64,000 nucleotides of DNA from a virus. Both the position numbers and the translations under genes were made by a program. The notes beneath the pieces are model-generated. The model was given only the letters and a program-made list of their open reading frames with translations. It made no database searches and was not told the DNA's origin. This document shows positions 1,467 through 56,881 of this stretch, piece after piece. Position 1 is the first letter of the stretch, and each line of letters starts with the position of its first letter. The stretch spans positions 39,780-103,779 of IMG/VR virus record IMGVR_UViG_3300042905_003268; one strand, given 5' to 3'.

Positions 1467-2021
1467 TTATTCATTTACCGGACAATCATTTAACCATCCA
1501 ACTATAACATATTTTTTACCTTCAGTAACGGGGAGGGCAGCATGATTGTAAATAAAGTTTGATGGGAAAATAACCAATTTTGGAGTCTTCGGCTTTACGT
1601 TTAGGTCAAAGAACTGGAAGTAGGTTTCTCCTCCAGAGTACTCACCTGGGTTTAAATATACTAAAATAGATATTGTTCTATAAAAAACATAATCACTATC
1701 AGAGTGTGGGAGGTACTGTCCTCCCTTAGAATATTTTAATATTCCTAAATCTACATTTTTTGTATAACTTGTTATGTATTTTTCACAGTAGTCGTCTATG
1801 CATTGATAAATATATAATTTTATTTTTTCTACAACATCGCTACTTTGGTCTAATAAATAATTTTTACTGGATCTAATAGATGTATTTATTTGATCTACCC
1901 CAACTCCAGAATTAACCCAACTATATATGTCGCTATTTATAATTTGATTATTTATCTCGTTGCATAGATTTTCTGGAAAATCATATTCTCTAATTCCTAA
2001 GGATAATTCTTTAGAATTCAT
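1467..2021 (-). CDS. 2OG-Fe(II) oxygenase, prolyl-4-hydroxylase-like
   Basis: HSD...YLN..YSGGETYF...IFPS...H..LPVTEGKKY. Confidence 0.85.
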   Translation of the reverse strand: MNSKELSLGIREYDFPENLCNEINNQIINSDIYSWVNSGVGVDQINTSIRSSKNYLLDQSSDVVEKIKLYIYQCIDDYCEKYITSYTKNVDLGILKYSKGGQYLPHSDSDYVFYRTISILVYLNPGEYSGGETYFQFFDLNVKPKTPKLVIFPSNFIYNHAALPVTEGKKYVIVGWLNDCPVNE

Positions 2022-2068: not shown

Positions 2069-2641
2069 ATGCCTCACGAAAATAAAAGTTTTTATATGGT
2101 TAAAAATGCCATTCCTGCAGAAATGTCAAAACTTATTTACCAGTATGCCATTTTTGATCAAATAAAAACTGGTAGAGTGGGGGATCATCAAGTTCCTACG
2201 GCTCATGGTAAGTATGCAGATCCCCTAATGGAGTCTTTGCTTTTACTTGTTCAGCCTATTATTGAAAAAACAACAGGTCTTTCTCTATATCCAACATATG
2301 CTTATTATAGAATATATAGAAGAGGAGATATTCTAAAGCCACATTATGATCGTCCGTCCTGTGAAATATCTGCAAGTTTATGTATCGGACATAATTACGA
2401 AAATTATGAATGGCCCCTATTTGTTGATGACTCCAAAATAATATTAGAGCCTACAGATCTAGCAATTTATAAAGGTTTGGATTCGTTGCATTGGCGAGAT
2501 GAATTTTTAGGACCGCATAATGCTGTTCAAGTTCAAGCCTTTTTGCATTATGTGGACGAAAATGGTCCCTACCAGGAATACAAATACGATGGTCGTCCTG
2601 CGGTGGGATTTCCATCATCATCTAAAAGAATTATTGACTAA
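2069..2641 (+). CDS. 2OG-Fe(II) oxygenase (phage type)
   Basis: PTYAYYRIY...[13 protein letters not shown]...HWR...QAFLHYV. Confidence 0.75.
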
Positions 2642-5429
2642 GCCATTCTTTTCTATTGTATACGAGAGCATTTTGTGTAAAGAATATATCGTACGGTTCG
2701 CAATCAACAACATATACGATTTCTTCTATGTCTGTAGCAATTTCTACTGAATCTATTTGTCTCCACCCCATTAAATTATAATCAAATATCTTATATGTTG
2801 TATCTAAAAATACTGACTGAGTAAACGAGTACACCCCGTCCTTTTCAACCAAAATATTATGATTATCGGTAAACCATTCATTGTTTATTTTAACCATAGT
2901 GCCAGTAACTCGTCTTGCATAAATATTAGTTACTTCTGTTGTTGTGTATCCATTATTTGTGAAGGTTTCAGAACTCCAATTATCTACATCGAAAGTCTCT
3001 CCTGCTAATGGCACTTCAGAAATATCTAAGGACACAAGCATATCTCCTATAGACAAGTACTTTACTTCAACATATCCATAGTCTCTAGTAAGAACTTTTG
3101 TATCTGGTCCAAGGCTAGTTGCTGGTGGTGGTTTTGGTGCTGGTGTAGGCGTTGGTGTAGGCGTGGGTGTAGGCGTGGGTGTGGGTGTAGGCGTGGGTGT
3201 GGGTGTGGGTGTGGGTGTAGGCGTGGGTGTAGGCGTGGGTGTGGGTGTAGGCGTGGGTGTGGGTGTTGGTGTTGGTGTTGGGGCGGGACTTGGTGTTGTG
3301 AATGATGTGCTAGACGTTGAACTACCTCCTGCACCAGTTGCCGTTAGAGTTGCAGTATAAGAAGTTCCCGTGGAAAGGTCACTATCGAATCCTACCCCAA
3401 CAGAAAGACTGGTTGATGTTGTTGAATAACTAGTACTTCCTCCAAATGGGTTAGATATTACAATAGAATAAGAACTTGCATTAGTAGCAGACCATGACAG
3501 AGTAGCAGTTGTTGTTGTTGAGGAAGCACTAAAAGAAAAAATAGTGGGTGGAGGTGGTGGAGGACTTGTGGTTGTAAATGAAACGCCGTTTGAATTAGTC
3601 ACTTGCATTGTGTCACCAGCATAATTTATCGCTGCAACCTGAGCGTAGTAATTCCGTCCTGGTTCTAAACCTGTTGCAGTATATGGACTAGAAACATTAG
3701 AATATGTAAAGTCGAACTCTCCAATTACGTCTGTCACAAAAAGGGTGTACTCCGTGGCATAGGAGGAGTTGGTCCAACTAAATTTTGCAGAGTTTTGTCC
3801 TACATCACTTACAGATAGACTAAATGCTCCTGGATTTGGGGGATATGTATTTGCCGTAACGGATGCTGAATATGGACCAGTTCCAGTAGGATTAACTCCT
3901 GCTACTCTAAAGTAGTATAAAGTTCCCGCCGATAATCCTGTAACTGTAAAATTAGAACTAGAAGTTCCATTTACTGTAGTCCATGTTGAATTGTCAGTAC
4001 TGTATTGTATACGATAATACGGAGATGATAAATTAAATCCATATATCTCATTCCAAACTAAATACACCTGACTCTGACTTAATGTGTATGCTTGCAGTCC
4101 TGTCGGCGCTGGGGGAGGTGAAATTAGTGTAGTAAAACTTACAAGATTAGAGTTAGTAACATCTACTTCATTGACAGCCGCTACCTGTACATCATATGAA
4201 ACTCCTGGAGATAGTCCTGTTAAAGTATAGAAGGTTGATGTAATATTACTTACGGACTCACCATTTCCAAACTGGTCGGTATAAAATACAACATAATAAC
4301 TAGCATTACTTGATGCCGTCCAAGTTAAATTAACGCTATTCTGACCAACACTATTATATGAAAGTGTAAATGGCCCAGGAGAACTAAAAATAATTCCGGG
4401 CGAATTAGCAAAAGCATAGGCCCAGTCAGAAAATGTTGAATCAACCAAAAGCCTAGCGCCTACTCTGCATGTAACATAATATCCTATATCAGAATTTGAT
4501 AAAGTATAACTTGAAAAAAATGCTCCTGGTATCTCTGACCATGTAGAATTATTTAAACTTCTTACCCATTGATATGCATAAAACAATGTTCCAGTACCAG
4601 TCCATGTGCCATTACTATTTACCTGTTGAGTAGATCCTACAATTCTAAAGCCCGTAGTAGTTGGAAGAACAGTATTTACTGGTGCTGGAGGTGGGTCTGT
4701 TGTAAATGGCGTTCCTGTAAGAGATGCCGTATTTCCAGTAGAAGATTTTATTATTATCTGTGGAGTATATTCTGTACTCGGATCTAAGTTTGAAAAACTA
4801 TAAGATCTAGCAGAAGTACTAGATATTTCTCCACTATTTACCTGACCAGTTCCATCTCCAAAGGGGTAGTACAGGATTATTCTATATGTAGATTGATTTG
4901 TAGATTGCCATGAAAGTGTGGCGGAATTAAAAGTCTTTGATACTAAAACAAAATTAGAAACTGTAGGAATAATAGGTATGGAAACATTTTCACTATCCTG
5001 AGCCATTGTATCTGTTTCTGAATAAACTCTTAAAGTAAAAACATAATTACCTGGAGAAATATTATTTGTAATTGTATATGTCTTTAATTGAGTATATACT
5101 TCTGTTGTTGTAAATACCTGAGATGGATTATCTGTCCTGTAATAAGATATTACTATATATTCTTGATATTCTGAATCCCAATTTAAAGTAACAGACGATG
5201 GTGTTGTAGAATAATCTGTTATAGATACTGTTGGAGTTAAGGTTCCAAAAAACACCGTCCATCCTGTCATTGTGCCGAATGATGGTTCATATACCCACCC
5301 AACATCAACAGATTTCCAAGATAGGTTAGTACCATCACCCACCCATACTGCACTTACTAATTTATTTCCTGAGTCTCCCCAGGCTGGGCTAGCATTTGTA
5401 CTATCATATAGTCTTATTTGCTTTGGCAT
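2631..5429 (-). CDS. Virion-type protein: FN3 repeats, (PT)n tract and C-terminal Hint-like domain
   Basis: Repeated LxW...Y...TGL.PG..Y.V.V.A.N FN3 signature; PT repeat; [10 protein letters not shown] / TDNH / LVYN Hint blocks. Confidence 0.75.
3139..3290 (-). repeat. Coding (Pro-Thr)n tandem repeat
   Basis: GGTGTR/GGCGTG hexamer run on the + strand; encodes PTPTPT. Confidence 0.95.
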
Positions 5430-27793: not shown

Positions 27794-27824
27794 TTTGCTT
27801 TTCACCTACCTTTCAGTTTATGTA

Positions 27825-31171: not shown

Positions 31172-33550
31172 TTACTCAGAAACAGATATGTTTTGCCATC
31201 TATTTTCTATAGCCTTAATCTTTGGAAGAGTTGTCATTTCAAAATACCTTCCTCCGTCGATAGATATTGATTGAACTGGTGATTGATTATCTAATAATGA
31301 AATTTCATCATCTTCTTCACATACAATTTTTACTCTTCCTATGAGTGCCTGATTTTTTAAATCTAAATAATTAGTGACGGAAGATGGAACATTTTCATTT
31401 ATTGTTAATTCTCCTACAGACCCAGACATTCCATTTAATCCAGACCTATCAGATCCTATAAATATAGTATCTGGTTCCGTAGTTCCAAAGTCTAGCGCTA
31501 TGTGATAGAAGTCTTTATCATTTAACTGCGTATTAGAGTTTGCCACGACTCCATCTACATATAAAGTAAACGTTCCGGTTTTCTGCAGCCCACCTGATGT
31601 ATAGGTTAATTTTTTATTTATAGATGATAAAGTATCTATTATTGTAAATGTCTCTGTTGTAGGGATCGAATCTAATTTAACTATAAAGTCTATAAATCTA
31701 ATAGTTGTTAGCCCAGAATCATCATATGGGTATACCATCCCACCACTAGTTTTTTGATTAATAAATTTAATTCCTAAATTATCTGGTTTAGATAAAATAG
31801 ATGATGATTCTGTATTTATAATATATGGCTCTACTTTTATTCCTGATGACGATGTAGGTATTGTAGATATTGTATATAATGCATTTTCTGATGCAATTTC
31901 AACATCTTGATATAAAACTAAATATAAATTATTAAAAACTGCCAGATCATTTTCAGAATCATCAGTAAATAAATTTATTTTTATGTTTATTGGATCATTG
32001 TTTTCATAATCCAAGTCTGGAATTATTGTATTTGAATTTATCTGTACATTGTTTACATATACTGTGGAATTTTTAGATGCAGTATTATATGTGATGCAAC
32101 TAGATAATATATTTTCCGTAGGGGTAAATGAATAGTACCATTGACCCCGCTGAGATACTTTTAGATTTCCTAATAACTTTAGGGTGTACTTACCTACGTC
32201 TGTAAAATTAATCTGAGAAAATTCTATTGCTTGATCTATTGTAAAATTTTTAATTTTACCCACTAGCGGGGTGTCTCCTGAAGAACTATTACCTAAAGTA
32301 AAAAATGGAGTTGATGACATGGCGGGGAAAGGATATTGATATGATAATTCTTGACTATTAACCTTTAATGAAACTAATTGATTATTAAAATTTACTGCAA
32401 CATTATGATATAAAGAAAAATTAGTTATTGCAGATGACTGCAAAATATTTTCTTCTGTCCCATCAAGGTACGTTAGAGACAAAGTGATCTTTTTATCTGC
32501 AGACTTATATAATCTGCATGATTGATAATTATCTAGGGGTCCAAACTCTAGCAATGTCTCTTCTTTTGCAGAATTATTTATTTGCTCTAGTACTTTTGAT
32601 TGGAATCTAATACAAAAATTGGAACTATTAATAGATTTTTTTATGTCAATTAAATTCAAGTATGTGGATTCTCCTAGAGAAAGCCCCTCCCCATTCAATT
32701 GATATTGATCTCCTATAATTATAGGATTTGCATACTCAACTAAGTTTATACTGTCTTCAAAAACTTCAATGTTATTTGATAGTGAATTCGATAGGGCGTC
32801 TGGTGATGTTAGTAGTACTTTTTGTTGACTAAGTATTGGCAAATATGACAGATTAAAATAGTCTGCTCCATATATAGAAGATATTTCTTTTAGTTTAGGC
32901 AAATATTTGCTCCATGCAGACCTTCTGTTTATTTGATTATTAGAAATTACATATGAATATAACGCTAGAGCATTTATAAAAAAGGGCATAGATGTGTTTG
33001 CAGAAGGACCAATTATTATATCTGGAGCAGATGTGTCTGGCAATAGGTACTCAGAACCCAGTAATATTTTTTCTATACTATTGTTTACTATAAGAGTAAG
33101 AACTTTATTTTCATATGTAATTGCTACATAATTAGAAGAATCCCATGTTGATACTGGAATAAAAACTTGTTGTGAGTCTGACTCTAGGTATATTTTATCT
33201 GATTTTATATAGCATTTTAAAAAATTTCCTATAGTAATTAAAGAATGATTATTCTCTATAGAAGATGATTCGATAGAAAAGAAGAACTCTATTGTAAAAT
33301 TTTTATTTTCTGAACCCTTTAAAAATAATCCATATACATTATCTATAGTCGCAGTTTTGTCATTTGTAAACTTGGCAGATTTTTTACATCCTGGAACTAT
33401 TGGTTTATAGTTATCTAAAATTCCAGAAATATTAATATTATTTGATCTTTTAGATAAGTCTTCTATACTAGTTGATCCAGCATTGTATTCAGGGGCAAAC
33501 TCCCAATATCCATAAGGATTTTCTGAAAGAACTATCTGGGAATATGACAT
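31172..33550 (-). CDS. Large virion-type protein with LamG/concanavalin-like domains
   Basis: MSYSQIVLSENPYGYW; FTIEFF...YVAITY...ALYSY lectin-fold pattern. Confidence 0.6.
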   Translation of the reverse strand: MSYSQIVLSENPYGYWEFAPEYNAGSTSIEDLSKRSNNINISGILDNYKPIVPGCKKSAKFTNDKTATIDNVYGLFLKGSENKNFTIEFFFSIESSSIENNHSLITIGNFLKCYIKSDKIYLESDSQQVFIPVSTWDSSNYVAITYENKVLTLIVNNSIEKILLGSEYLLPDTSAPDIIIGPSANTSMPFFINALALYSYVISNNQINRRSAWSKYLPKLKEISSIYGADYFNLSYLPILSQQKVLLTSPDALSNSLSNNIEVFEDSINLVEYANPIIIGDQYQLNGEGLSLGESTYLNLIDIKKSINSSNFCIRFQSKVLEQINNSAKEETLLEFGPLDNYQSCRLYKSADKKITLSLTYLDGTEENILQSSAITNFSLYHNVAVNFNNQLVSLKVNSQELSYQYPFPAMSSTPFFTLGNSSSGDTPLVGKIKNFTIDQAIEFSQINFTDVGKYTLKLLGNLKVSQRGQWYYSFTPTENILSSCITYNTASKNSTVYVNNVQINSNTIIPDLDYENNDPINIKINLFTDDSENDLAVFNNLYLVLYQDVEIASENALYTISTIPTSSSGIKVEPYIINTESSSILSKPDNLGIKFINQKTSGGMVYPYDDSGLTTIRFIDFIVKLDSIPTTETFTIIDTLSSINKKLTYTSGGLQKTGTFTLYVDGVVANSNTQLNDKDFYHIALDFGTTEPDTIFIGSDRSGLNGMSGSVGELTINENVPSSVTNYLDLKNQALIGRVKIVCEEDDEISLLDNQSPVQSISIDGGRYFEMTTLPKIKAIENRWQNISVSE

Positions 33551-33564: not shown

Positions 33565-34137
33565 TTATTTATACCAGAATACTGGGCAAATGTATCTTTC
33601 AGAGCCATATGCTGGTTTAGGATCATGAATATAAGGGTGGGTAGAGGGGAATATTATCATGCTACCCGCCTCTGGCTTTATAGAAAGCCCATAATTTGGA
33701 AACTCAAGTTCTCCACCCTCGTAATCATCATTTAAGTAAAGAACTCCAGATATGTATGCATTTTGAGAATCATCAGTATGCGGACCCATGAATGTTCCTT
33801 CATGATACTTACATATAAGTGGAGGTATTAAAGATTTTAAAGTTAAATTATTTTTTTCAGAATAATTTTCAGCAGACATAGATATAGCATTAAAAATAAT
33901 ATCATATAAATATTTTTCTTCAATTGTGGATTCTTTATATTTATGATAATTTATTTTTTTTAAATCACCGAATAAAGTAGGACTATTCCCAGATGATTTC
34001 CATTCAGACCAAGAACCTATCAGACTTCCTTTAGATCCCACACTATTTATTAAATCTATTATTTTTAAATTTTTAGGTATTAAATCTCGGTAATAATGTA
34101 TTTTAGTGTCATCAATTCCCAGATCTTCCTGGATCAT
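33565..34137 (-). CDS. 2OG-Fe(II) oxygenase, P4H-like
   Basis: HTD...YLNDDYEGGEL.FP...H...ERY. Confidence 0.85.
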   Translation of the reverse strand: MIQEDLGIDDTKIHYYRDLIPKNLKIIDLINSVGSKGSLIGSWSEWKSSGNSPTLFGDLKKINYHKYKESTIEEKYLYDIIFNAISMSAENYSEKNNLTLKSLIPPLICKYHEGTFMGPHTDDSQNAYISGVLYLNDDYEGGELEFPNYGLSIKPEAGSMIIFPSTHPYIHDPKPAYGSERYICPVFWYK

Positions 34138-34871
34138 GCGAACTTATTTCCCTTTGCCCATTCTTCTCTTTGCTGCTCTTGTTCTTTTCTTATGTTCTTT
34201 ATTTCTTCTTCCCACTCTAATTTTAATTCTTCAGAGTAGTCTGCATCACTATAGTCCCAGAAAGAAACCATGGTGTATCTAGTTCCTTTAGTTATTTCTG
34301 AAACACCATGTATATTTTCTACCCCTCCTGGAAAGCATATTAAAGAATATGCATTAGGCTTAAAGGATATATCATGCTCTGGAAAATAAAGTTGTCCACC
34401 TTCATAGTCATCATTTAGGTACAAAATTCCAACATACTTATTTATTTGAAAAGAATTTGGATTTCCATCAAAATCGGAGTTATCTGAATGTACTGATGCG
34501 AAGCCCCCTACGTCCCATTTTTGTGCATGAGAGGTGTTTGGTTTTACCTTCTTATCAAAGATTTTTTCTATTGCTTCTTGAAATTTTAAACTAATAGATG
34601 GAAAAAAATTTCTGTCTAAATTGAATTTATCTAGATCTTCATCTCCTGGCATTAAGCCCATACCAGAAGATCCATAAAATGCTATTGGACCCCACATATC
34701 TGCTTTGCACTCAAAGTACTCTGTCATTGCTTTTGCAGTATCTGGAGAGACAAAGTTTGGCACTTCTATAATTCTATTTTTTTCTACACCTAGTCTACTT
34801 TTTTCATTTAAATTATCTTCATCTTTATAAATTATGAAATCTTTTTCATCAATATTTTCAATTATACTCAT
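34134..34871 (-). CDS. 2OG-Fe(II) oxygenase, P4H-like
   Basis: HSD...YLNDDYEGGQLYFP...HGV..ITKGTRY. Confidence 0.85.
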   Translation of the reverse strand: MSIIENIDEKDFIIYKDEDNLNEKSRLGVEKNRIIEVPNFVSPDTAKAMTEYFECKADMWGPIAFYGSSGMGLMPGDEDLDKFNLDRNFFPSISLKFQEAIEKIFDKKVKPNTSHAQKWDVGGFASVHSDNSDFDGNPNSFQINKYVGILYLNDDYEGGQLYFPEHDISFKPNAYSLICFPGGVENIHGVSEITKGTRYTMVSFWDYSDADYSEELKLEWEEEIKNIRKEQEQQREEWAKGNKFA

Positions 34872-35539
34872 GGCTTTCTATCTCCCGTATGCTTCATTAT
34901 CGTCCAAAAGAAGGGGACTGTGTATCTAATTCCAGACTTGACCTCTCTAATTCCATGTATATAGTTCATATCTCCAGGGAAAAAGTAGGCAGCACCTTTC
35001 TTGGGCTTAAATTCTATTCCTTGGTTTGGGAAGTAAAGTTCCCCGCCCTCATAATCATCATTAATATAAAAAAGACCAGCGATATCATACCAAGGGAAAC
35101 TATTAGGCTTTCCTGCGTCTGGACCCTCATGTAATTCTTTATCTGCATGAGGCATTTGAAGTTGCCCTGGCAACCACCTGACCATTGCGGGGGTGGTTGG
35201 ATGAACATCTACATTAAAAAAAGAATCAACTTCTTTTTTTAACCTATCCACCATTTCTTCAATTGTATCAACTATAGATGGATCTGTTTTCATTATATTT
35301 GGATATGTAACAACTCTATCTACCCAATAACTGTGGTCGTATGTGACAGTTCCATTTTCGTTTATATCACTTTCAGTAACGTCCCATACTTTATTATTTC
35401 TTATAAAGTTATTTAATTTAATTATTTCTTCATCTAAAATAAAATTTTCTATAGTTACAATATTAGAGGCATCTTTGCCAAAGAAGCCGGAAGGAGTTAT
35501 GGATACGGGATCTCCCTGTATTCTATCTCTATCTACCAT
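34868..35539 (-). CDS. 2OG-Fe(II) oxygenase, P4H-like
   Basis: HAD...YINDDYEGGELYFP...HGI..VKSGIRY. Confidence 0.85.
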   Translation of the reverse strand: MVDRDRIQGDPVSITPSGFFGKDASNIVTIENFILDEEIIKLNNFIRNNKVWDVTESDINENGTVTYDHSYWVDRVVTYPNIMKTDPSIVDTIEEMVDRLKKEVDSFFNVDVHPTTPAMVRWLPGQLQMPHADKELHEGPDAGKPNSFPWYDIAGLFYINDDYEGGELYFPNQGIEFKPKKGAAYFFPGDMNYIHGIREVKSGIRYTVPFFWTIMKHTGDRKP

Positions 35540-36261
35540 TACACATACTTCCTTCTATGCCATACTTCATTTAAATATACTCCGCCGTTTGGTACTCTAT
35601 ACTTTATAGAGTTTTCAATTATTCTATTTTCCATGGAGAATGGATCTATCACCTTATGGCTATGTTCCCAATCTTCTCTCTTAAATGGAAAAAGTTGTAC
35701 ATATGGAGTTCCTTTAGGTATTATACCAGACCAATCCTTTGCTATAAAAAACGGTATAGTCCCAGGAATGTCTACGCAATCTGAATCAACTACTCCAGAA
35801 GTATTTAGGAATGGTAAATCAAATCTATTGAATGGCTGAGAAAACAATACACTATATCCTTCTGGAACTGAAGGCATCCAATCTGGCCACCAGGCAAAGT
35901 GTTTATCTCTATACCCCATTGGACTTTCAAACCCTGGCATTTTGTCTCTATAATGAATAAAATCTTGGCACTTTGGGTCAGAAATATCTACATGGAGTTC
36001 TCCATCCTCTTCAATAAATTCTATATCGCAAGGTGTTTTTAACACATATCCAGTTGCAAGTATGTCATATATTGCTGGGCAGGCTTTCCATGAAGGTATT
36101 TTACCTCCATCCATTCCAATAAAATCGTTTCCATCTTCGTCTTTTGCGTATCTATCCGCCTTTAAATACCACTCAGGGATTTCTTTAGATGCTGGACCAG
36201 GAGCGCTAGCACTTTTTTTATTCAGCCAGGTGCGGCTTGGAACAAATTCTATTTTATTCAT
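35539..36261 (-). CDS. Conserved phage protein (DUF6065-like / dUTPase-like beta fold)
   Basis: IPEWY...KACP..YD...GY...SGVVD.D...IPKGTPYVQLFPFKRE; paralog of 42959..43651. Confidence 0.5.
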   Translation of the reverse strand: MNKIEFVPSRTWLNKKSASAPGPASKEIPEWYLKADRYAKDEDGNDFIGMDGGKIPSWKACPAIYDILATGYVLKTPCDIEFIEEDGELHVDISDPKCQDFIHYRDKMPGFESPMGYRDKHFAWWPDWMPSVPEGYSVLFSQPFNRFDLPFLNTSGVVDSDCVDIPGTIPFFIAKDWSGIIPKGTPYVQLFPFKREDWEHSHKVIDPFSMENRIIENSIKYRVPNGGVYLNEVWHRRKYV

Positions 36262-36955
36262 GCTCCACTCTCATAGTTATTTTTTTAACTTCATGTTCTC
36301 CTGCTTTATTACCTTTATGATCTATAGCATTTCGATAAAAATGTGTCCACTCCCCCTTGGAATTCATTTCTTCAGAAACTACTGCTTTTTCTCTGTTAAA
36401 GATATTCCATTCTTCAGAATTCATAAAATCTGGATTTTTATTTTTAACTACCAATTCAATATTATTAATTTCAGATAAAGATACTGGAAGTATTGATGCT
36501 AGTGGCGTGCCCTTTGGAATAAATATTTCCTCATCTTGTTTTGTTACCATTAAAGAAATAGGAAGTTGATTATATAGAACAGAAGTACTGATTATTGTGC
36601 TAATACATTGTACTCCATCTATAAATACATTAGGAGGAGGCATAGTTAATATTGAAATATTTTCTTCTGGAGAAAAAATAATTCCCGTATCAATACTAAC
36701 TGTTCTATTGGCTCTTCTATTTGAAACATACATATTTTCAGTAATTATATCTACATAATTATTTTCGCTTTTACTTTTTAATGTAAATCTAATATCTTCT
36801 TGAAATGATATTGACCATCCTAGCCTATTTGCCATAGTTAATGGAAAACATTGGTATGCATGTTTGTCAAATGTCTCGTCCATCCAGTCTCTATGTGGAG
36901 GCATTTGATCTATAATGCATGGAGATTCTTTACTTCTATAGGCAACTATTTTCAT
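36254..36955 (-). CDS. DUF6065-like protein
   Basis: RDWMD...HAYQCFPLTMANRLGW...PPN...KGTP. Confidence 0.6.
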   Translation of the reverse strand: MKIVAYRSKESPCIIDQMPPHRDWMDETFDKHAYQCFPLTMANRLGWSISFQEDIRFTLKSKSENNYVDIITENMYVSNRRANRTVSIDTGIIFSPEENISILTMPPPNVFIDGVQCISTIISTSVLYNQLPISLMVTKQDEEIFIPKGTPLASILPVSLSEINNIELVVKNKNPDFMNSEEWNIFNREKAVVSEEMNSKGEWTHFYRNAIDHKGNKAGEHEVKKITMRVEHE

Positions 36956-37656
36956 TAATTCCCGGTTTCTTGATAAAAATTATTATTATGAAATTTATCT
37001 GAATAGTCCAACATTGTAACGATAGAATACTTTGTACCGCTTACAACTGGCAATGATTTATGTGGATACATAAAGTTAGATGGGAATACGAAAAGGTCAC
37101 CCGCCCTTGGCTTGATTTTTAGTTTCTGTAGCCTAAATTCTAACTCTCCGCCTTCATAGTCATCATTAGGATATCCTACTAAAGATACTACGCAGTTGTA
37201 AGAATATCCATGGTCTGTATGCTCTTGGAAGTGTTGTCCTGGCCCATACTTAACAAAATTCATGGCCTCCCAGTATCTAACCTCACCAATATTAAATGAT
37301 CTACAATAATTTTTTACTGCAGGAAGTTTTAGATCGTACAGTTCTTGCCATAAACTTTTTAACTTTTCTCCAGAGTCAGAATTATCATGCTCTATATCAC
37401 TTCTTTTATATTTAAAGTCAAAGCAATCTCTGTACTCTGGCATTTTCATTCCGTACCCGACCATCGCCTCTTGATAGAAATACATGTTAGAAGAATCATT
37501 AAGAACTTCTTCTACCTTATCAATAGAGTGCTTGGGAACTAAGTCTCTGTACACAAAAATTCCAGGCCCAACCTGATCTACTGAACTCCAAGTTTCCTTA
37601 TCGTATCGATAGAAATCCTGTATTCTTTTACTTACATCATCTTGATTCTCTTGCAC
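36955..37656 (-). CDS. 2OG-Fe(II) oxygenase, P4H-like
   Basis: HTD...NDDYEGGEL.F...FPS...H..LPV.SGTKY. Confidence 0.85.
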   Translation of the reverse strand: MQENQDDVSKRIQDFYRYDKETWSSVDQVGPGIFVYRDLVPKHSIDKVEEVLNDSSNMYFYQEAMVGYGMKMPEYRDCFDFKYKRSDIEHDNSDSGEKLKSLWQELYDLKLPAVKNYCRSFNIGEVRYWEAMNFVKYGPGQHFQEHTDHGYSYNCVVSLVGYPNDDYEGGELEFRLQKLKIKPRAGDLFVFPSNFMYPHKSLPVVSGTKYSIVTMLDYSDKFHNNNFYQETGN

Positions 37657-37671
37657 ACTACACCTCTCAAT

Positions 37672-38406
37672 TTAATAAATTAGTTTTTCATTGACTAAAT
37701 TGTAGTCAAAGTACTTCATTCTTCCCCTGGAATTATAATCACTCATAACTACTAATGAATATTTTGTTCCACTTATCATAGGAAGAGATGCATGTTCATA
37801 AATATATGTTGAAGGGAAAATAAACAAGTCCCCGCGCTCTGGCTTTACTTTAAGATCAAATCGCGGGAAATATAATTCTCCACCTTCGTAGTTATCATTT
37901 AAATATCCAACCATAGAAATGGTAGATACATAGGCTGGACCGTGATCTGCATGAATATTAAAATGCTTTCCTTGACCATCATACTTTACAAAATTAAATA
38001 CTTCAAAGTAGTTGACTTGAACTCCCCAGTACTGCCCGTAGTCTTGAGAGCAGGGAAATAAATGTTGAAAACTTTTTTCATGTATATTATATAACTCATG
38101 ATTTTCATCATTTTTTTCACCCAGGCATCCGTGTCCAATTTTAAAATCAACACAGTTTCTTGCGTCTAGCAGAGGATCTTTTGATTCGGTGACTGTGGCA
38201 CTTTGCCAATTATATAAAGAGTTTTTATTTAATTTTTTTTCTAAGGTTTCAATGATATTACTACATAATTCTTCTGGAAAACAATTTTTATATATGTTGA
38301 TTCCTAGTGCTGGATTTTCAACAATTATATTGTTAGATATGCTTCTAGGTGTTTTCCTATTAGTATCTGTTTCTGATCGATCTTTGTTATGCCAATCATT
38401 CATCAT
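37672..38406 (-). CDS. 2OG-Fe(II) oxygenase, P4H-like
   Basis: HAD...YLNDNYEGGELYFP...H..LPMISGTKY; start moved to the ATG after AAGGA. Confidence 0.85.
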   Translation of the reverse strand: MMNDWHNKDRSETDTNRKTPRSISNNIIVENPALGINIYKNCFPEELCSNIIETLEKKLNKNSLYNWQSATVTESKDPLLDARNCVDFKIGHGCLGEKNDENHELYNIHEKSFQHLFPCSQDYGQYWGVQVNYFEVFNFVKYDGQGKHFNIHADHGPAYVSTISMVGYLNDNYEGGELYFPRFDLKVKPERGDLFIFPSTYIYEHASLPMISGTKYSLVVMSDYNSRGRMKYFDYNLVNEKLIY

Positions 38407-39715
38407 TTTCCTTATTATTATATACCACGCAGTCCTGAGAAATATAGAATTTTTCAGTATCACATTCAATTATATAAGAATTAACTGAAACATTTTCAAT
38501 GCATTCTATATTTTCTACAGCAGTCCAGTTCATGTCGTTAACATTAAAAATTTCATAAGACTCATCTATTTCTGAAGCGGATGTAAATTGTACCAATCCA
38601 TCTTTCTTACTAAGGATATGAGTATTATCAACAAACCAGTTGCTATTTATCTGATAGATAGATGAATCCCTATTATCTACAGAAATATTAACTACCTCTG
38701 TCTCTTTTGCTTCTATGTCATCTATTGATGCAAAGTCTTCTTCTGGAATGGCAAGTCCATATATATCTTGTATATTTAGAGTAAGAACCTTGTCACCCTC
38801 CTGAAGTTCTTGGGCAGCGACATATCCATCTACCGTCAAAATGTAGGTGTCGGATGATGTTGATGTAAATCTTGGGAACCTTGGTGGGAAGAACGGTGGG
38901 AAGAATGGGAACCTTGGTGGGAAGAACGGTGGGAAGAACGGGAACCTTGGGGGAAAAAATGGAGGGAAGAACGGTGGAAAAAACGGTGGGAAGAATGGAA
39001 AAAATGGTGGGAAGAATGGAAAAAATGGAGGAAAGAATGGAGGAAAGAATGGAGGGAAAAACGGGAAGAATGGGAAGAACGGAGGAAAGAATGGTGGGAA
39101 GAATGGTGGGAAGAATGGAGCCGTTGTTGTAACGCTAGAAGAATATGGAGACCATTCACTAAAACCATTAGCATTTTCTGTTCTTACTCTGTAGGTTTGA
39201 GAAGTTCCACCTTCTTGCGCTACTGTAACTGATGTTGATGTAGTGTTTCCAGATTTAGCATCAGTACTTTCCCAATAATATCTTATTAATGCCTTTCCGC
39301 CATTTGCTGGAACACTCCAGGAAACTGTGTCTTCATTCGCTACTGATGATGATGCAGTAGGCGCAGACATAGTTTGCGGTACGGTTGTTACAGCAATAGA
39401 GGTGCTATTCGCAGACGGAGAAGAGTTTCCTGAAGAATTTGTTGCAATAACATAAAATTGATAATTACCAGCAGCAATTCCAGATACAGTTATTGGTGAT
39501 GAAGATCCTGATGCTGTGTACCCGCCAGTTGCTGAATACACAGTATATGATGTTGCTGGAGTAGATTCTGCAGGAAGAGAAAAAGATACGGTAGCCGCGC
39601 CATTATTAAATGCTCTACCAGTACCAATATCAGTTGCAGAAACATTAATAGGTGGGGAGGGTGCCAAAAAGTCGTTCTGCTGTGCAGACCTATTGCCAGA
39701 TTCTTTCTTAGCCAC
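38396..39715 (-). CDS. Virion-type protein: two FN3 domains, (PPFF)n tract and C-terminal Hint-like domain
   Basis: FN3 motifs; ~84-aa P/F(R) tract; STSSDTYILTVDG...EGDKVL...VVYN. Confidence 0.75.
   Translation of the reverse strand: MAKKESGNRSAQQNDFLAPSPPINVSATDIGTGRAFNNGAATVSFSLPAESTPATSYTVYSATGGYTASGSSSPITVSGIAAGNYQFYVIATNSSGNSSPSANSTSIAVTTVPQTMSAPTASSSVANEDTVSWSVPANGGKALIRYYWESTDAKSGNTTSTSVTVAQEGGTSQTYRVRTENANGFSEWSPYSSSVTTTAPFFPPFFPPFFPPFFPFFPFFPPFFPPFFPPFFPFFPPFFPFFPPFFPPFFPPFFPPRFPFFPPFFPPRFPFFPPFFPPRFPRFTSTSSDTYILTVDGYVAAQELQEGDKVLTLNIQDIYGLAIPEEDFASIDDIEAKETEVVNISVDNRDSSIYQINSNWFVDNTHILSKKDGLVQFTSASEIDESYEIFNVNDMNWTAVENIECIENVSVNSYIIECDTEKFYISQDCVVYNNKENDE
38867..39118 (-). repeat. 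Coding Pro/Phe tandem repeat
   Basis: GGGAAGAAYGGW-type 12-mers and 9-mers with synonymous variation. Confidence 0.95.
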
Positions 39716-39749
39716 TTTTCTCCCAGGTATCAGTAATCAGTATATCATA

Positions 39750-40766
39750 TTAAGTTTTAAGATCGCCATATACGATCCAAGAATTAGACGCTCTCTTTAA
39801 TAGAGTACATGAAGACCATCTTGTTCTTAGTTTTAGGCCAGGGGTGGCATTTACAGTAACTCCTACTGCTCCCGCAATTGTTACTTCTCCAGTATTTATT
39901 TGAAATACGTCAATGCTTGACCCTATTGGATAATTTAATGTCGAATCTGCTGGTATTGTTACTGTGGTTGCAGATGTACTATCCATTTCAATAATATTAT
40001 CTCTTAAGGTGAGAGCGTCAAGTGTATAACTAGATGTTTTATTTATAAATGATGATATAGAAGGAACGCCAACCTTAGTCTGAGTACCATCAGAAAATGC
40101 CACTCCAGAACTTGCTGTAACAAGTCCAGAGAATGTTGGGGCATTAACTACAGATACCTGTGTTCCAGAAACTGAAGTGTTTGTACCAGCAGTTATTGCT
40201 CCCGCTCCAGAGAATTGACTAAATGTTATTGGATCAGAACCTATAGTTCCTACAATTTCTGTCTGAACCCACCCAGTATTATCATTTGAAGTTCCTCCAG
40301 TTACGAATACAAAGTCTCCGCCATCAATTTCTGCTGGGGAATCAAAGTCAGACGCTCTTACCAATGCTGTTCCATTGAATACATAAATACCATTTTGAGA
40401 TGAGGTAGATTGATTCTTAACAAGTACTCTCATATTTGTGGTAAGGGTCACATTGTCAATAGAGGCGGGAGGAGATGAAAGATTAGAAATATTAGTTGTT
40501 GTAGCAGTAGCACATGATTCGTGTATATGAAGACCTTCTGTCGTTGAATCCACATATTCTTTTGTGGCAGCGTGCATTGCCTGAGTAGGGTCTGCATGTA
40601 AGGTAATAAATCCTGTGAAGGTATCTCCTGATTTACTGGCTTTACCGTCAACAGTTGTTGATAACGAACCTAATGCTGCTTCTGTGGCATAGTCTTCCAG
40701 GTCGGGGATTTTGATTGCTACATCTACCCACTCAGTTCCAGTCCATACTTTTATAGGTTTAGCCAT
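39750..40766 (-). CDS. Fibre / adaptor virion protein
   Basis: HAATKEYVD; RVLVKNQ...QNGIY; C-terminal domain shared with 44703..47138. Confidence 0.65.
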   Translation of the reverse strand: MAKPIKVWTGTEWVDVAIKIPDLEDYATEAALGSLSTTVDGKASKSGDTFTGFITLHADPTQAMHAATKEYVDSTTEGLHIHESCATATTTNISNLSSPPASIDNVTLTTNMRVLVKNQSTSSQNGIYVFNGTALVRASDFDSPAEIDGGDFVFVTGGTSNDNTGWVQTEIVGTIGSDPITFSQFSGAGAITAGTNTSVSGTQVSVVNAPTFSGLVTASSGVAFSDGTQTKVGVPSISSFINKTSSYTLDALTLRDNIIEMDSTSATTVTIPADSTLNYPIGSSIDVFQINTGEVTIAGAVGVTVNATPGLKLRTRWSSCTLLKRASNSWIVYGDLKT

Positions 40767-42745: not shown

Positions 42746-42959
42746 CTTCCGCCTGCCACTTTCCTATAGGACATTCAGCATTTGGCAGTTTTACTTTTTG
42801 TGTCATGAAACACCCGCATTTTTTGCATTGCTTTGTAGTTTTTATTAATTCAGGACATATCAAACATTTAGACAGTCTATAGTCCTGAATCTCTTCAGAA
42901 ACCTTAGAAATATTTGGATTTATTAAATCCCAAGGTTTTGCTTTTTTCTTTTTAAACAT
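42738..42959 (-). CDS. Small Cys-rich metal-binding protein (DUF6171-like)
   Basis: R..C..C...QCKKCGCFM..K......CPIGKW. Confidence 0.6.
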   Translation of the reverse strand: MFKKKKAKPWDLINPNISKVSEEIQDYRLSKCLICPELIKTTKQCKKCGCFMTQKVKLPNAECPIGKWQAEDE

Positions 42960-43651
42960 TATAAAAACCTTTTTTTAGTCCAAAAATTATCTCTGTAGTA
43001 TCCTCTTTTTACAGATCTACATTTTATTCCCTGACAACTTGCTTGATGAGATAAACTTTTGTCTACGGACATGGCCCAGGATTCTCTTTTAAATGGTATT
43101 ATTTGACATATTGGAGTTCCTGCTGGGATAACTCCTTCAAAGGAGGCGTCAAAAAAGAAGGGTATATTGCCCCAGGAATGCATTTTATCAGAATCTACTA
43201 TTGAAGATACAGTACTAAAAGGCAAATCTTTTCTGTTTAGAGGATGAGTAAATAAAACGGAATGTTTTTTAGGAACTTTTATTCCCCATAAACCTTTCCA
43301 GGTCATGTGATTTATTAAGTTATCATTTCCTCTAGGCATTTTTTCTCCTAGTTTGTTGTCTCTCTCTACGACAAGTGGTAGGTTGCCTTCCCATTCAACA
43401 ATTACGTTTCCATTTTCTTTAGTTACATATACATTATTTTGTAATAATATAAAATATCCAGATATTAAAGAATCTAGGTATGGCATACATGCCTTTATTC
43501 CGCTTTTTAAATCCTCGTCTTCAGAAACTATGTGATGCTCTGACTTCATATACCATTCTGGAATAGCAGATCCCGACTTTATTGGAGATATAACTTCTTG
43601 CCCGGAATCTAATAGTTCTAGAGAAGGAATAAATTTAATGTTTTTAATCAT
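42959..43651 (-). CDS. Conserved phage protein, paralog of 35539..36261
   Basis: IPEWY...KACMP.LD...GY...IPAGTPICQIIPFKRE. Confidence 0.55.
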   Translation of the reverse strand: MIKNIKFIPSLELLDSGQEVISPIKSGSAIPEWYMKSEHHIVSEDEDLKSGIKACMPYLDSLISGYFILLQNNVYVTKENGNVIVEWEGNLPLVVERDNKLGEKMPRGNDNLINHMTWKGLWGIKVPKKHSVLFTHPLNRKDLPFSTVSSIVDSDKMHSWGNIPFFFDASFEGVIPAGTPICQIIPFKRESWAMSVDKSLSHQASCQGIKCRSVKRGYYRDNFWTKKRFL

Positions 43652-43893: not shown

Positions 43894-44706
43894 CTAACTT
43901 AAATTAAATTTTGTAACTGAGTTTCCTTGATTATCTGATGATGATAATATTATACCAGACTTGCTTGCTGGAGAAGATATTGTTTGATTCATAGATCCTA
44001 TATTATTTGTCATGTTTGTGTCGCTATAGGCTATTGCATTTAAAGAAGTTCCAGATATTGTTGCTTTAATAGTCAATATTGTGGCGCTTGCAGAAGCATT
44101 AAATATCGTACTAACAGTATTTGATACAGATCTTATTAAAGTTAAAAATCTATTTATTCCAGATGTTGTATAACTACAGTCATAATAATTTATGTAACTA
44201 CAGTCATAATAGGTCGGACATGACCAACTCCCGCATGTGGCTGGAACACAAGTTTCTGTACATGCATCTGAATTAAAGAAAAATTGACCATATCCTGCTG
44301 GGCAACTAAGAGTACAGTAAGAGCCGCAATACCATTCACAGTATCCGTAGGAAACACAGGTAGCGGGAACATAATTGCTACACGTTTGCGGCACATAAGT
44401 AGAAAAGTTTTGCTCTCTTCTATATACTCCCCACCAATTTCCAGAATCTGAAACCCAAAATGCTATTCCTCCGCCAGAAGATACATTTGCCACTAAAGTT
44501 TGAGAAGTTGGAGAGGCAACATCAATTGTTGCTATTGGATACGAACTAGCAGAGTCTGATGAAGTTGTTGTATTAGATGATATTGACCAAGTTCCTCTAA
44601 TATTTTTCCATGGACTACCTAAAGATCCATTTGATCTATTAAATAAATCGGTAAACGTTTTAAATCCTCTTTTAGAAGATGATACTAAGCCAATTAAAAA
44701 ACTCAT
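43894..44706 (-). CDS. Virion-type beta protein with a Cys/Tyr-rich insert
   Basis: DLFNRSNGSLG..W scaffold; ~75-aa insert with many Cys and Tyr. Confidence 0.6.
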   Translation of the reverse strand: MSFLIGLVSSSKRGFKTFTDLFNRSNGSLGSPWKNIRGTWSISSNTTTSSDSASSYPIATIDVASPTSQTLVANVSSGGGIAFWVSDSGNWWGVYRREQNFSTYVPQTCSNYVPATCVSYGYCEWYCGSYCTLSCPAGYGQFFFNSDACTETCVPATCGSWSCPTYYDCSYINYYDCSYTTSGINRFLTLIRSVSNTVSTIFNASASATILTIKATISGTSLNAIAYSDTNMTNNIGSMNQTISSPASKSGIILSSSDNQGNSVTKFNLS

Positions 44707-50379: not shown

Positions 50380-51018
50380 TTAATCAACTATGCTTGTAAT
50401 GGTTCTATCAGAAACATTACCTTTTTTACCAAAAAATAGAACTAGGGTGTCTCTAAGTCCCATCTCCACTAAGTTTACGCTATGCGGATATAAGTGATCA
50501 CCCTTAAATATTATAAGGTCACCACACTTAGGCTTTATAATTAAATCTTGTTTTGGAAATACTAACTCTCCTCCTAAATAGTCCACCCCATGGTCATTAA
50601 AATACAATAAGGCAGAATACTCTTGCTCCTCTGGTATTCCATCTGGTCTATTAGGCTTTCCATCTAGGGTTGTAGAGTCGGAGTGAAGACCATTATGCGC
50701 CCCTGGAGCCATAACATGGTAAGCAAACTGTACTAAATCTAACTGCTGTTGGAAAAAAACTTCTAGGTTATTTTTTATTTCTAATACTAACTTTGTTATT
50801 TTTATGCTTAAATCTTTGTCAGAGAATCCATTAACAAACTGAAGTGGATTTTCTTCACTCAGCATAGACGCCTCTTTTGAATTCTTAAAACCAACTTTAC
50901 TAGGAAATGTGTTAGCGTTGTATTCATTATTAGTAACAGTTTTTCTAAAGTAATTAGTTATATATTCAGCGTCTTCTCTAGAAATAAAATTATTTATAAT
51001 TTTTAACTGTTCAGTCAT
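50380..51018 (-). CDS. 2OG-Fe(II) oxygenase, P4H-like
   Basis: HSD...YFND...GGELVFP...HSV...R. Confidence 0.8.
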   Translation of the reverse strand: MTEQLKIINNFISREDAEYITNYFRKTVTNNEYNANTFPSKVGFKNSKEASMLSEENPLQFVNGFSDKDLSIKITKLVLEIKNNLEVFFQQQLDLVQFAYHVMAPGAHNGLHSDSTTLDGKPNRPDGIPEEQEYSALLYFNDHGVDYLGGELVFPKQDLIIKPKCGDLIIFKGDHLYPHSVNLVEMGLRDTLVLFFGKKGNVSDRTITSIVD

Positions 51019-54031: not shown

Positions 54032-54145
54032 CGAAAAAGTATAGCATTGTATACTTAATGAGTCCATGTGGCGGGAATCACATAATAATATTCGCCATAT
54101 GCTAAGATCATATGTACAATTGCAATATATAAAGAAAGAAGCAAT

Positions 54146-56191: not shown

Positions 56192-56205
56192 GCACGATCT
56201 TGCCT

Positions 56206-56775: not shown

Positions 56776-56881
56776 CTGTCAGACCCTCATGGTAGGGTGT
56801 ACCTATAACTGAATATTCCTAGGCAAATAAGCCCCATGAGGGATGAGCCCTAGGCCACACCGTAAGAAAGAAAGGTAAGAA

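Follow-up and report, generated by a model that had tools for sequence, protein, structure and literature searches.

A tailed-phage gene cassette pairing a Pro/Phe-repeat Hint protein with prolyl-hydroxylase-like oxygenases as candidate modification enzymes

Described systems and the phage locus

The closest precedent comes from the chlorovirus PBCV-1, whose prolyl 4-hydroxylase (P4H) is reported to hydroxylate peptides with the sequence of Pro-rich repeats encoded by the virus itself (Eriksson et al. 1999; PMC3634087, PMC7019647); hydroxyproline was not detected in PBCV-1 virion proteins (PMC7019647). Marine cyanomyoviruses carry 2OG-Fe(II) oxygenases in multiple copies per genome, with no known substrate, and these have been described as 'auxiliary metabolic genes' (PMC3037559).

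We analysed a window of 64,000 nucleotides from an uncultured freshwater (lake) phage. Its major capsid protein shares 65% identity with those of ~130-kb Streptomyces phages, which makes a lineage of actinobacterial phages probable. On the minus strand, a gene for a protein with a Pro/Phe tract is followed by five PF13640 oxygenases and two DUF6065 proteins, tightly packed. As in PBCV-1, the enzymes are virus-encoded, single-domain and of the collagen-type P4H family, and both genomes also encode proline-rich repeat proteins, the presumed substrates. The phage module differs in belonging to a tailed phage of bacteria, in the number of its diverged paralogs (five to ten, forming an operon that immediately follows the repeat gene), in having a Pro/Phe polymer with a Hint cap as its repeat, and in its DUF6065 partners; peptide activity was measured for PBCV-1, whereas for the phage module it is predicted.

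Collagen modification (P4H, P3H1, LH3) also brings several related 2OG oxygenases to one repetitive structural protein, as we propose for the phage, and the phage oxygenase profile matches the clade that holds these enzymes and the mimivirus lysyl hydroxylase 6ax6. Unlike collagen, however, the phage tract has no Gly-X-Y repeat, and the cassette has no peptide-substrate-binding or PDI subunit and no glycosyltransferase. Plant and algal extensins share the Pro-rich repeats, which small P4Hs hydroxylate there, and one member of the tract-protein family has a sub-threshold Extensin_1 match. In contrast to extensins, the phage tract is dominated by aromatic residues and lacks Ser-Pro(n) motifs, and the protein is made in the cytoplasm, without a signal peptide or an adjacent glycosyltransferase (the one nearest to the cassette, at 53012-54181, lies outside it). 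The cyanomyovirus oxygenases belong to the same Pfam family, at ~33% identity, and likewise occur in several copies per genome, but those of the cyanophage examined are dispersed amid replication genes with no adjoining tract gene, whereas the phage cassette is fixed behind the repeat protein.

The tract protein

38396..39715, minus strand: tract gene P0001, 439 aa, GTG start; conserved N-terminal peptide, two FN3 domains, Pro/Phe tract, Hint
39122..39661, minus strand: two FN3 domains (~residues 19-113 and 118-198), from the ortholog profile against the PDB
38867..39118, minus strand: Pro/Phe tract of 84 residues (200-283), in PFF and PPFF units
38399..38866, minus strand: C-terminal Hint/bacterial-intein-like domain from AF2 and Foldseek, putative nucleophile Ser285 (codon 38861-38863)

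The original prediction had described a gene with two FN3 domains, a tract of ~84 Pro and Phe residues with a few Arg, and a Hint-like domain, and the translation, ortholog profile and AF2/Foldseek results all agree with it. The 439-aa translation is stop-free, and its N-terminal part has >458 relatives in IMG/VR. With Pfam alone the FN3 match is weak and below threshold, and the phrog_31 match is weak too, but a profile built on six orthologs matches FN3 domains of titin, fibronectin and chitinase in the PDB over positions 19-113 and 118-200, with E down to 3e-33. The tract comprises 38 Pro, 42 Phe and 4 Arg, the Arg all at its C-terminal end in three PPRF units and a final PRF. The best Foldseek match of the Hint model (pLDDT 87.6) is 2lwy, a bacterial intein-like domain of C. 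thermocellum (E 1.8e-6, TM 0.67/0.75); inteins and Hedgehog 1at0 (E 1.8e-4) come next, and on this model we are confident that the domain has a Hint/bacterial-intein-like fold.

Tract codons are mixed (CCA 25, CCG 7, CCT 5, CCC 1; TTC 29, TTT 13), which had been read as a sign of selection on the peptide. Taken within the tract this is a weak argument, because the antisense frame, a (GGKN)n reading that is bound to be open, is silent at the same third positions. The claim itself stands on a comparison with the relative L005: over the final 45 codons of the tract, the two genes differ by 13 synonymous and 0 non-synonymous changes; the tract peptide is under purifying selection. The sense frame is continuous with the conserved FN3 and Hint domains. 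Tract length varies, from 84 aa here to 82 in L005 and 76 in a near-identical contig (L004/L006). Relatives carry Tyr, His, Ser, Asn or Cys in place of Phe, while Pro is retained in nearly all tract classes.

The Hint family is rare, with 41 representatives in 1.84 billion proteins. Over 110 unique members, Ser/Cys1 is present in 89 of the 98 aligned, (S/T)xxH in ~80% and the block-F Asp in 83. Like BIL and Hedgehog/Hog domains, the family has the Hint fold, a C-terminal position, Ser/Cys at position 1 and no C-extein, with (S/T)xxH and the block-F Asp in most members. It differs from them in being rare and separate, in always lying behind a Pro- or aromatic-rich low-complexity tract, in a last block that is mostly (H/Y/F)-Asp rather than His-Asn, and in having no sterol-recognition region. 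The P0001 copy differs further: Ser1 is present, but the block-B His register and the block-F EPYD motif are lost, at a dN/dS of 0.25 against L005. In most members the Hint may self-cleave at Ser/Cys1, which would make the tract a free C-terminal end, the state that many Hint-less relatives encode directly (their proteins end 3-25 residues past the tract). Cleavage in P0001 may be slow or lost, since blocks B and F are degenerate.

Enzymes and neighbouring genes

37672..38469, minus strand: oxygenase 1, ortholog group A (PF13640 E 2.7e-11; B. anthracis P4H 3itq E 2.7e-6)
36955..37656, minus strand: oxygenase 2, tandem copy of group A (PF13640 E 1.3e-14; LH3 and P4H matches)
36254..36955, minus strand: DUF6065 protein, group b (PF19541 E 5e-28, 98.6 bits), of the same HMM family as the next gene
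35539..36261, minus strand: DUF6065-like protein, group e (phrog_7084 E 1.4e-33)
34868..35539, minus strand: oxygenase 3, group C (PF13640 E 1.5e-6)
34134..34871, minus strand: oxygenase 4, group D (PF13640 E 3.3e-8)
33565..34137, minus strand: oxygenase 5, group F (PF13640 E 8.5e-12; PKHD-type hydroxylase and P4H matches)

The five HxD...H oxygenases that the original prediction placed directly downstream all score above the PF13640 gathering threshold; the probable start of oxygenase 1 is the 38406 ATG, within the last bases of the tract gene. H, D and H are invariant, with Lys/Arg after the distal His, in all seven oxygenases of the window. The oxygenase profile matches 57 PDB sequences, of which the named ones are protein prolyl/lysyl hydroxylases or PKHD-type hydroxylases: B. 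anthracis P4H 3itq (6e-11, full length), P3H1 8k0e (1e-10), 5c5t (1e-8), LH3 (6e-7), 6ax6 (a collagen lysyl hydroxylase, 3e-4) and PHD2. No AlkB, TET/JBP or thymine hydroxylase is among the 57. We take 5c5t (228 residues, listed simply as 'prolyl 4-hydroxylase') to be the PBCV-1 enzyme. These sequence matches support placing the cassette oxygenases in the prolyl/lysyl-hydroxylase clade, in keeping with the predicted class, which included prolyl 4-hydroxylases.

Both DUF6065-like genes were also correctly called, that of group e as a distant relative of the group b protein through phrog_7084, common to both. The group e model (AF2 pLDDT 95) reaches a VIA-align Z of 9.6 to dUTPase 3h6x, and its best 22 structure matches are all of the dUTPase superfamily or dUTPase fold; the predicted DUF6065 fold is a dUTPase-like beta-barrel. 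A PDB sequence search with this protein gave no match to dUTPases or any other entry, and the b-type copy lacks the motif-3-like Asp pair. Neither DUF6065 protein is an oxygenase.

39750..40766, minus strand: fibre/decoration-like protein upstream of the tract gene (phrog matches to head decoration, tail fibre and virion structural families)
44703-47138: fibre/decoration-like gene
31172..33550, minus strand: 792-aa Laminin_G_3 (concanavalin-like) protein (PF13385 E 5e-12)
29208-30791, same minus-strand run as the cassette: portal gene
27825-29156: protease gene
26795-27805: capsid gene

The cassette is bounded by the fibre/decoration-like genes on one side and the portal, protease and capsid genes on the other. 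The Laminin_G_3 gene begins 15 nt past the last oxygenase, and the portal gene comes next. All the way from the tract gene to the portal gene, across the array and the LamG gene, neighbouring genes overlap or abut, and this packing predicts one expression unit. The cassette had been assigned to the virion gene block; we infer membership of a virion/late structural block from its position between fibre-like and head genes, and display of the tract protein on the particle is putative.

Conservation and competing explanations

Co-occurrence of tract genes and oxygenases across phages had been proposed as a check, and in IMG/VR relatives the order T-A-A-b-e-C-D-(F/I...) recurs (T, tract gene), with its own ortholog group at each position and up to 10 oxygenases per locus. 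Among 50 tract genes with 6 kb on both sides, 117 oxygenases lie within 6 kb downstream and 3 upstream; in the PFF class the first begins 5-80 nt from the tract gene's stop. Sampling from DUF6065 instead, with tract ORFs detected without homology, gave 66 usable loci; in 60 of them a Pro/aromatic tract ORF immediately precedes the array. Oxygenase count rises with tract proline fraction (rho 0.69, n=88 unique FN3-family genes): tracts with at least 30% Pro have at least three oxygenases in 48/48 cases, and no oxygenase lies near the Pro-free FGAFGA and FYN tracts, though these occupy the same genome slot. Under phylogenetic control ~3 of 10 independent pairs are informative, all in the expected direction (p ~0.25). 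Together these results support a conserved module of a repeat protein and dedicated tailoring enzymes over a chance neighbourhood.

A second pairing lies 33 kb from the first in the same genome:

2631..5429, minus strand: P0004, 932 aa, a second family member with an FN3 array, a (Thr-Pro)n tract and a Hint
1467..2021, minus strand: oxygenase downstream of the P0004 gene (PF13640 E 3.9e-14)

The P0004 Hint carries canonical Ser1, TxxH and CEPYD motifs. Its ortholog in L085 (P0007) has a PFF-type tract where P0004 has (TP)n, and Pro is therefore the common denominator.

The best reading, to which we give about an even chance, is that the five oxygenases hydroxylate tract prolines, with the (Thr-Pro)n tract of P0004 as a probable further target. 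Among candidate substrates for these orphan phage enzymes, the Pro/Phe tract is the likeliest. Four to five of the paralogs diverged long ago, and each could be fitted to its own sequence context or ring position, much as the work on collagen is divided between P4H, P3H and lysyl hydroxylase. The added hydroxyl groups would make a very hydrophobic polyproline-like rod differ in stiffness, solubility and hydrogen bonding, or would offer sugar handles, and the two dUTPase-fold DUF6065 proteins would be constant partners. The broader description, of an accessory protein of surface type (FN3-FN3, Pro/Phe polymer, Hint) paired with its own modification enzymes, we likewise hold to be evenly balanced. 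We counted against hydroxylation the report on hydroxyproline in PBCV-1 virions, the Hint motif loss in P0001, the Hint loci without oxygenases, the fibre and portal neighbours common to almost all loci and the small number of informative pairs under phylogenetic control.

It is rather unlikely, though not negligibly so, that the targets of the oxygenases and DUF6065 proteins are host proteins or other proteins of the virion (fibres, the LamG protein), adjacency reflecting a co-inherited fibre-to-portal block. Nearly all sampled loci have homologous fibre and portal neighbours (a homolog of the 39750..40766 protein is upstream in most), and so one ancestral arrangement could account for the synteny. 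The underpowered independent contrasts also fit this, as do the 15 of 37 Hint-defined loci without oxygenase or DUF6065 nearby, some with Pro-rich APPADPP linkers, and the up to 10 oxygenases, many for one simple repeat. Against it stand the 5-80 nt spacing in the PFF class, the two Pro-free tract classes without adjoining oxygenases in the same slot, and the second pairing.

That the cassette targets nucleotides, DNA or 2OG/succinate metabolism, as proposed for cyanophage 2OG-Fe(II) oxygenases, is improbable. It would fit the dUTPase/dCTP-deaminase superfamily fold of DUF6065 (Z up to 9.6), the cyanomyovirus homologs amid gp43, UvsX and gp41, the published proposals of DNA repair and 2OG modulation (PMC3037559), and the seventh oxygenase, which does not adjoin a tract gene:

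50380..51018, minus strand: PF13640 oxygenase (E 6e-9), adjoining the ribonucleotide reductase (RNR) gene
51015-52946: RNR

We counted this seventh gene, the cyanomyovirus homologs among replication genes with no tract gene, and the hint of nucleotide chemistry in the DUF6065 fold against proline hydroxylation. However, the oxygenase profile matches only protein and PKHD-type hydroxylases, the cassette sits inside the late structural run, and DUF6065 lacks both a sequence-level dUTPase match and, in the b-type copy, the Asp pair.

Slightly more doubtful again is that the tract stays unmodified and serves as a low-complexity linker or sticky segment like FG repeats, with the P0001 Hint as a structural end-knob and the enzymes as unrelated passengers. 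The existence of FGAFGA and FYN tracts, and a Hint whose dN/dS is 0.25 although its catalytic blocks are degenerate, agree with it; the close spacing behind PFF-class genes, the Pro-free tracts without oxygenases, the second pairing and the position-specific enzyme ortholog groups that stay with the tract gene over long divergence do not. Finally, although Phe makes up half of the tract and the oxygenases include several diverged paralogs, the RiPP-like system or Phe hydroxylation to DOPA-like adhesive chemistry of the original prediction is very improbable: its substrate-plus-tailoring layout survives as the conserved module, but the 'precursor' is a 439-aa FN3 protein, the cassette lacks a leader/core peptide, recognition element, peptidase and exporter, no enzyme class for Phe hydroxylation is present, the matched clade targets Pro or Lys side chains, and Phe is the position freely swapped in relatives.

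The window also holds a third, divergent DUF6065-like gene:

42959..43651, minus strand: DUF6065-like (HMM E 2.5e-21, without a Pfam match)

Layout of the locus and coding of the Pro/Phe tract

The window is the 64-kb end of an IMG/VR virus record of 103.8 kb, whose completeness is estimated at 84%, and all genes between about 2.6 and 54 kb lie on its minus strand. The original prediction described a gene encoding two FN3 domains, a tract of Pro and Phe and a Hint-like domain, followed by five oxygenases and two DUF6065-type genes. We found every one of these elements at the positions described.

Main features of the locus (window positions)
2631..5429, minus strand: P0004, the 932-residue Hint paralog, with an FN3 array and a (Thr-Pro)n tract
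13011-22175, minus strand: ORF of 3054 aa in the tail region, presumably the tape measure protein
33565-38469, minus strand: array of five PF13640 oxygenase genes and two DUF6065-type genes
38396..39715, minus strand: tract gene, encoding P0001
38867..39118, minus strand: Pro/Phe tract, 84 residues (38 Pro, 42 Phe, 4 Arg)
62264-62345: tRNA Leu-CAA
63391-63464: tRNA Glu-TTC

Behind the tract gene, the order is oxygenase, oxygenase, DUF6065, DUF6065-like and three further oxygenases, and these seven genes overlap or abut. The gene for a 792-aa concanavalin-like protein begins 15 nt past the array and is followed by the portal, prohead protease and major capsid genes, while fibre- or decoration-like proteins are encoded upstream of the tract gene. 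Scans for promoters and terminators did no better than scans of shuffled sequence. Across the final 8 kb (56000-64000) G+C climbs from about 0.37 to 0.50, and this part carries short plus-strand ORFs together with the two tRNA genes.

P0001 has 439 residues, beginning with an N-terminal peptide that is conserved among its relatives. Two FN3 domains follow at positions 19-113 and 118-200, where a profile of six orthologs matches the FN3 domains of titin, fibronectin and chitinase. The tract itself is built of PFF and PPFF units, with Arg-containing units at its end (three PPRF and a final PRF). Variation of synonymous codons along the tract had been taken as a sign of selection on the peptide. 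This argument is weak, because the third positions that vary are silent in the antisense reading too; there the frame is (GGKN)n, which cannot contain stops. Selection on the peptide is instead supported by comparison of relatives. In one contig the flanks are 99% identical and the tract is 8 residues shorter. In a relative whose flanks are 77-87% identical, the tract has stayed pure PFF/PPFF and the PPRF units are shared; over the last 45 tract codons, this relative differs by 13 synonymous and 0 non-synonymous substitutions. We rejected the antisense plus-strand reading as the coding frame, both because the sense frame runs unbroken into the conserved FN3 and Hint domains and because substitutions among relatives are conservative in the sense frame only. 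Neither megablast of the region nor tblastn of the tract protein matched any cultured-phage record, so no cultured relative has the tract gene.

The enzymes of the array

All five array oxygenases score above the Pfam gathering threshold for PF13640 (29.5-55.4 bits against a cut-off of 27), as do the products of 1467-2021 and 50380-51018, giving seven in the window. For six of the seven, one of the window's two Hint-tract genes lies upstream at a distance of at most two genes. The enzymes are single-domain proteins of 190-265 residues, and in their alignment the iron triad HxD...H (H173, D175, H226) is invariant. Each also has a Lys or Arg about 10 positions past the distal His (GTKY, GIRY, GTRY, SERY, GKKY, GLRD), which by analogy is a putative ligand of the 2OG C5-carboxylate. 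A profile of the seven matches 57 PDB sequences, the top one being the Bacillus anthracis P4H (6e-11, nearly full length); other leading matches are prolyl 3-hydroxylase 1, the small P4H entry 5c5t, PiuC-type hydroxylases, LH3 and PHD2. No nucleic-acid oxygenase is among the 57. We also considered an eighth candidate, the plus-strand ORF 2069-2641 (190 aa), which is convergent with the P0004 gene and overlaps its stop. It contains HYD...H motifs, but with no Pfam match and an hhalign probability of 2.5% it was not confirmed as an oxygenase.

The DUF6065 gene at 36254-36955 matches PF19541 at 98.6 bits (cut-off 26.6). The gene at 35539-36261 has no Pfam match and is joined to it by phrog_7084 and by a local HMM common to both. 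A structural model of DUF6065 (pLDDT 95) is a dUTPase-like beta barrel: VIA-align gave Z 9.6 over about 120 residues, with the top 22 chains all of the dUTPase superfamily or fold, and Foldseek agrees. This fold excludes DUF6065 as a further oxygenase or cupin. We found no similarity between DUF6065 and dUTPases at the sequence level; of the two copies, that at 35539-36261 has an IDxD-like motif and that at 36254-36955 lacks it. More than 586 close relatives exist in IMG/VR; our search of the literature on DUF6065 returned nothing. A nucleotide or metabolic role of the cassette, for which the dUTPase-like fold speaks and against which the oxygenase profile's PDB matches stand, is improbable.

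The Hint domain

The C-terminal domain of P0001 (156 residues) was modelled with AlphaFold on 42 homologs and has a Hint fold (pLDDT 87.6). Its best structural match is the Clostridium thermocellum bacterial intein-like (BIL) domain 2lwy (E 1.8e-6, TM 0.67/0.75), followed by inteins and then the Hedgehog autoprocessing domain; all 43 Foldseek matches in the PDB at E <= 1e-3 are BIL domains, inteins or Hedgehog. The family is rare, with 41 representatives among 1.84 billion proteins. In every member the domain is C-terminal and comes after a low-complexity tract that is Pro-rich and/or aromatic, of the classes PFFPP, FGFTP, GFYH, PPYYNPP, APPADPP or poly-Pro; FN3 or PASTA domains make up the N-terminal modules.

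Catalytic columns of the Hint family (110 unique sequences; position 1 counted from 98 aligned)
Position 1: Ser 72, Cys 17 (of 98 aligned)
Block B, Ser/Thr column: 95
Block B, His column: 82
Block F, Asp column: 83
Last residue: Asp 67, Asn 30 (of 110)

P0004 carries the full set of catalytic motifs, and both the block B TxxH and the block F Asp are found in it and in about 80% of the family. P0001 keeps the position-1 nucleophile (Ser285) and has lost these two motifs: in block B, Val and Thr occupy the T and H columns with a His off by one (close relatives have Tyr there), and block F reads ECDTEK where the family has DCEPYD. Despite the lost block B register and EPYD, the domain is under purifying selection, with dN/dS of 0.25 against the related locus L005. 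Looking for the marks of an intein, namely a C-extein with Cys, Ser or Thr at +1 and a terminal His-Asn, we found instead that in most members 0-10 residues follow the domain; in P0001, the +1 residue is Asn. Judged by these motifs, the family shows the pattern of N-terminal autoprocessing domains (BIL or Hog type) rather than that of splicing inteins.

Of the FN3-family relatives, about forty percent lack the Hint domain and stop 3-25 residues past the tract, some of them ending in Cys-rich tails, and presence of the domain switches at least 11 times on the N-terminal tree. The Hint-less proteins and the repeated switches would fit self-removal of the Hint domain, after which the protein would end in the tract. 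Among the Hint-less loci, the PFC-type ones (L014, L023, L030, L032 and L071) have tracts of repeated F-C-P-x units, while L038, L062, L069, L076 and L079 have Cys-rich tails such as GGCPPRC and CPECTKGCPC; such sequences suggest that the free end takes part in disulfide or metal chemistry.

Linkage, candidate substrate and host

With the N-terminal FN3 part as a query we retrieved more than 458 IMG/VR relatives, and read 80 loci. An aromatic low-complexity tract follows the two FN3 domains in 80 of 80. Once the enzymes were sorted into sequence clusters, the gene order proved strikingly constant, T-A-A-b-e-C-D-(F, I, ...), where T is the tract gene, capitals are oxygenase ortholog groups and lower-case letters are DUF6065 groups (b, 36254-36955; e, 35539-36261). 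Because each position has its own ortholog group and paralogs of one array share only about 20-37% identity, the array is old and its members are specialised. FG-type tracts are followed by another DUF6065 group (g), often only 10-40 nt downstream, and by 0-3 distant oxygenases of groups H and N; at these loci DUF6065 is the sole enzyme-like gene directly behind the tract gene. The Hint-defined sample of 37 loci adds the patterns T-J-K, T-P-m and T-o, and 15 of the 37 have neither oxygenase nor DUF6065.

The linkage is directional and is also seen in the reciprocal sample. Counting around the 50 genes that have 6 kb of sequence on either side, we found 117 oxygenases downstream versus 3 upstream. 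Of 79 loci sampled by DUF6065, 66 had enough upstream sequence, and in 60 of these 66 an ORF called as Pro/aromatic tract by composition only lies directly upstream of the array. Two further observations concern the tracts themselves. The 932-aa FN3-array protein at window 2631-5429 and its ortholog at L085:8001-10463 (likewise P0007, a further Hint-family protein) have near-identical N-termini. Ahead of the Hint domain the window protein has a (Thr-Pro)n tract and the relative, in the corresponding position, a PFF/PFFQ-type tract, so tract classes are exchangeable between orthologs. In L048, the tandem FN3-family genes 7923-8726 and 8765-9607 have a Pro-free (F/Y)YN-repeat tract and no Hint, with no oxygenase or DUF6065 within 10 kb.

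We compared oxygenase number with tract proline in 88 unique FN3-family genes, each with at least 6 kb downstream. The count correlates with the Pro fraction (rho 0.69) and with the number of Pro residues (rho 0.73), and none of the 48 tracts that are 30% Pro or richer has fewer than three oxygenases.

Mean oxygenase count by Pro content of the tract
Pro <5%: 0
Pro 5-25%: 1.1
Pro 25-36%: 5.6
Pro >36%: 6.4

After phylogenetic control the relation is not established. It is not significant at the level of clusters (rho 0.34, p 0.18, 17 clusters), and the 10 independent pairs on supported branches of the N-terminal tree, an underpowered set, gave about 3.4 in the same direction and 0 in the opposite (p about 0.25). 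Pairs taken from the Hint-domain tree, equally underpowered, gave the same picture.

The best reading, to which we give an even chance, is that the oxygenases would hydroxylate prolines of the Pro/Phe tract and of the paralog's (TP)n tract. The main rival is that they act on another protein and that the synteny is simply inherited. Homologous fibre and portal neighbours are common to nearly all loci, and much of the synteny is thus explained by one arrangement in an ancestor; we consider this rival rather unlikely. The original interpretation stands in part: proline hydroxylation is retained as the best reading, and two other elements found no support. One was Phe hydroxylation with DOPA-like chemistry. 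The other was a RiPP-like system, for which the candidate precursor is a 439-aa FN3 protein and the cassette holds only oxygenases and DUF6065 genes, with no short leader/core precursor, recognition element, leader peptidase and/or exporter found in it.

In collagen, including that of mimivirus, several 2OG oxygenases act on one repeat protein. The nearest precedent for the module, a viral P4H paired with the virus's own Pro-rich repeats, is the chlorovirus PBCV-1, whose small P4H hydroxylates peptides matching those repeats (PMC3634087, PMC7019647); hydroxyproline was not detected in PBCV-1 virions (PMC7019647). Our literature searches found no description of a tract gene-oxygenase module and nothing linking hydroxyproline to bacteriophage virions and 2-oxoglutarate, and a freshwater phage paper does not mention oxygenases. 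Among the "auxiliary" genes of aquatic phages that still lack an explanation, those for P4H-type 2OG-Fe(II) oxygenases are some of the commonest. DNA repair and modulation of 2OG have been discussed as functions of these enzymes, for which no substrate is known (PMC3037559). The cyanophage enzymes belong to the same Pfam family as the array's and likewise have no known substrate; unlike the array, in the cyanophage genome that we examined they lie among replication genes, with no tract gene nearby.

More tentatively, with the balance slightly against it, a tailed phage may here make collagen- or extensin-like material: a Pro/aromatic polymer on a virion appendage, hydroxylated at multiple positions by specialised P4H-type enzymes, with dUTPase-fold DUF6065 partners and release by Hint autoprocessing. 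If true, the widespread "orphan" phage 2OG-Fe(II) oxygenases would have a structural-protein substrate rather than a metabolic role. The module, which recurs in hundreds of lake-virome contigs, offers a concrete and cheaply testable candidate substrate encoded immediately upstream of the oxygenases. Confirmation would make this the first case, in the literature that our searches reached, of a bacteriophage structural protein with enzymatically hydroxylated proline. It would also add a new role for Hint domains and a naturally occurring Pro/Phe polymer of unusual material properties; if the proposal were refuted, the very tight, conserved linkage would still call for another explanation.

With regard to the host, the lake MAGs in which DUF6065 relatives turn up, on short contigs, span many phyla. 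Mis-binned phage DNA is the most likely source of these contigs, which therefore do not identify the host. The family includes members with PASTA domains, which points to Gram-positive hosts, and the capsid protein shares 65% identity with those of Streptomyces phages of about 130 kb. A freshwater actinobacterial host is likely.
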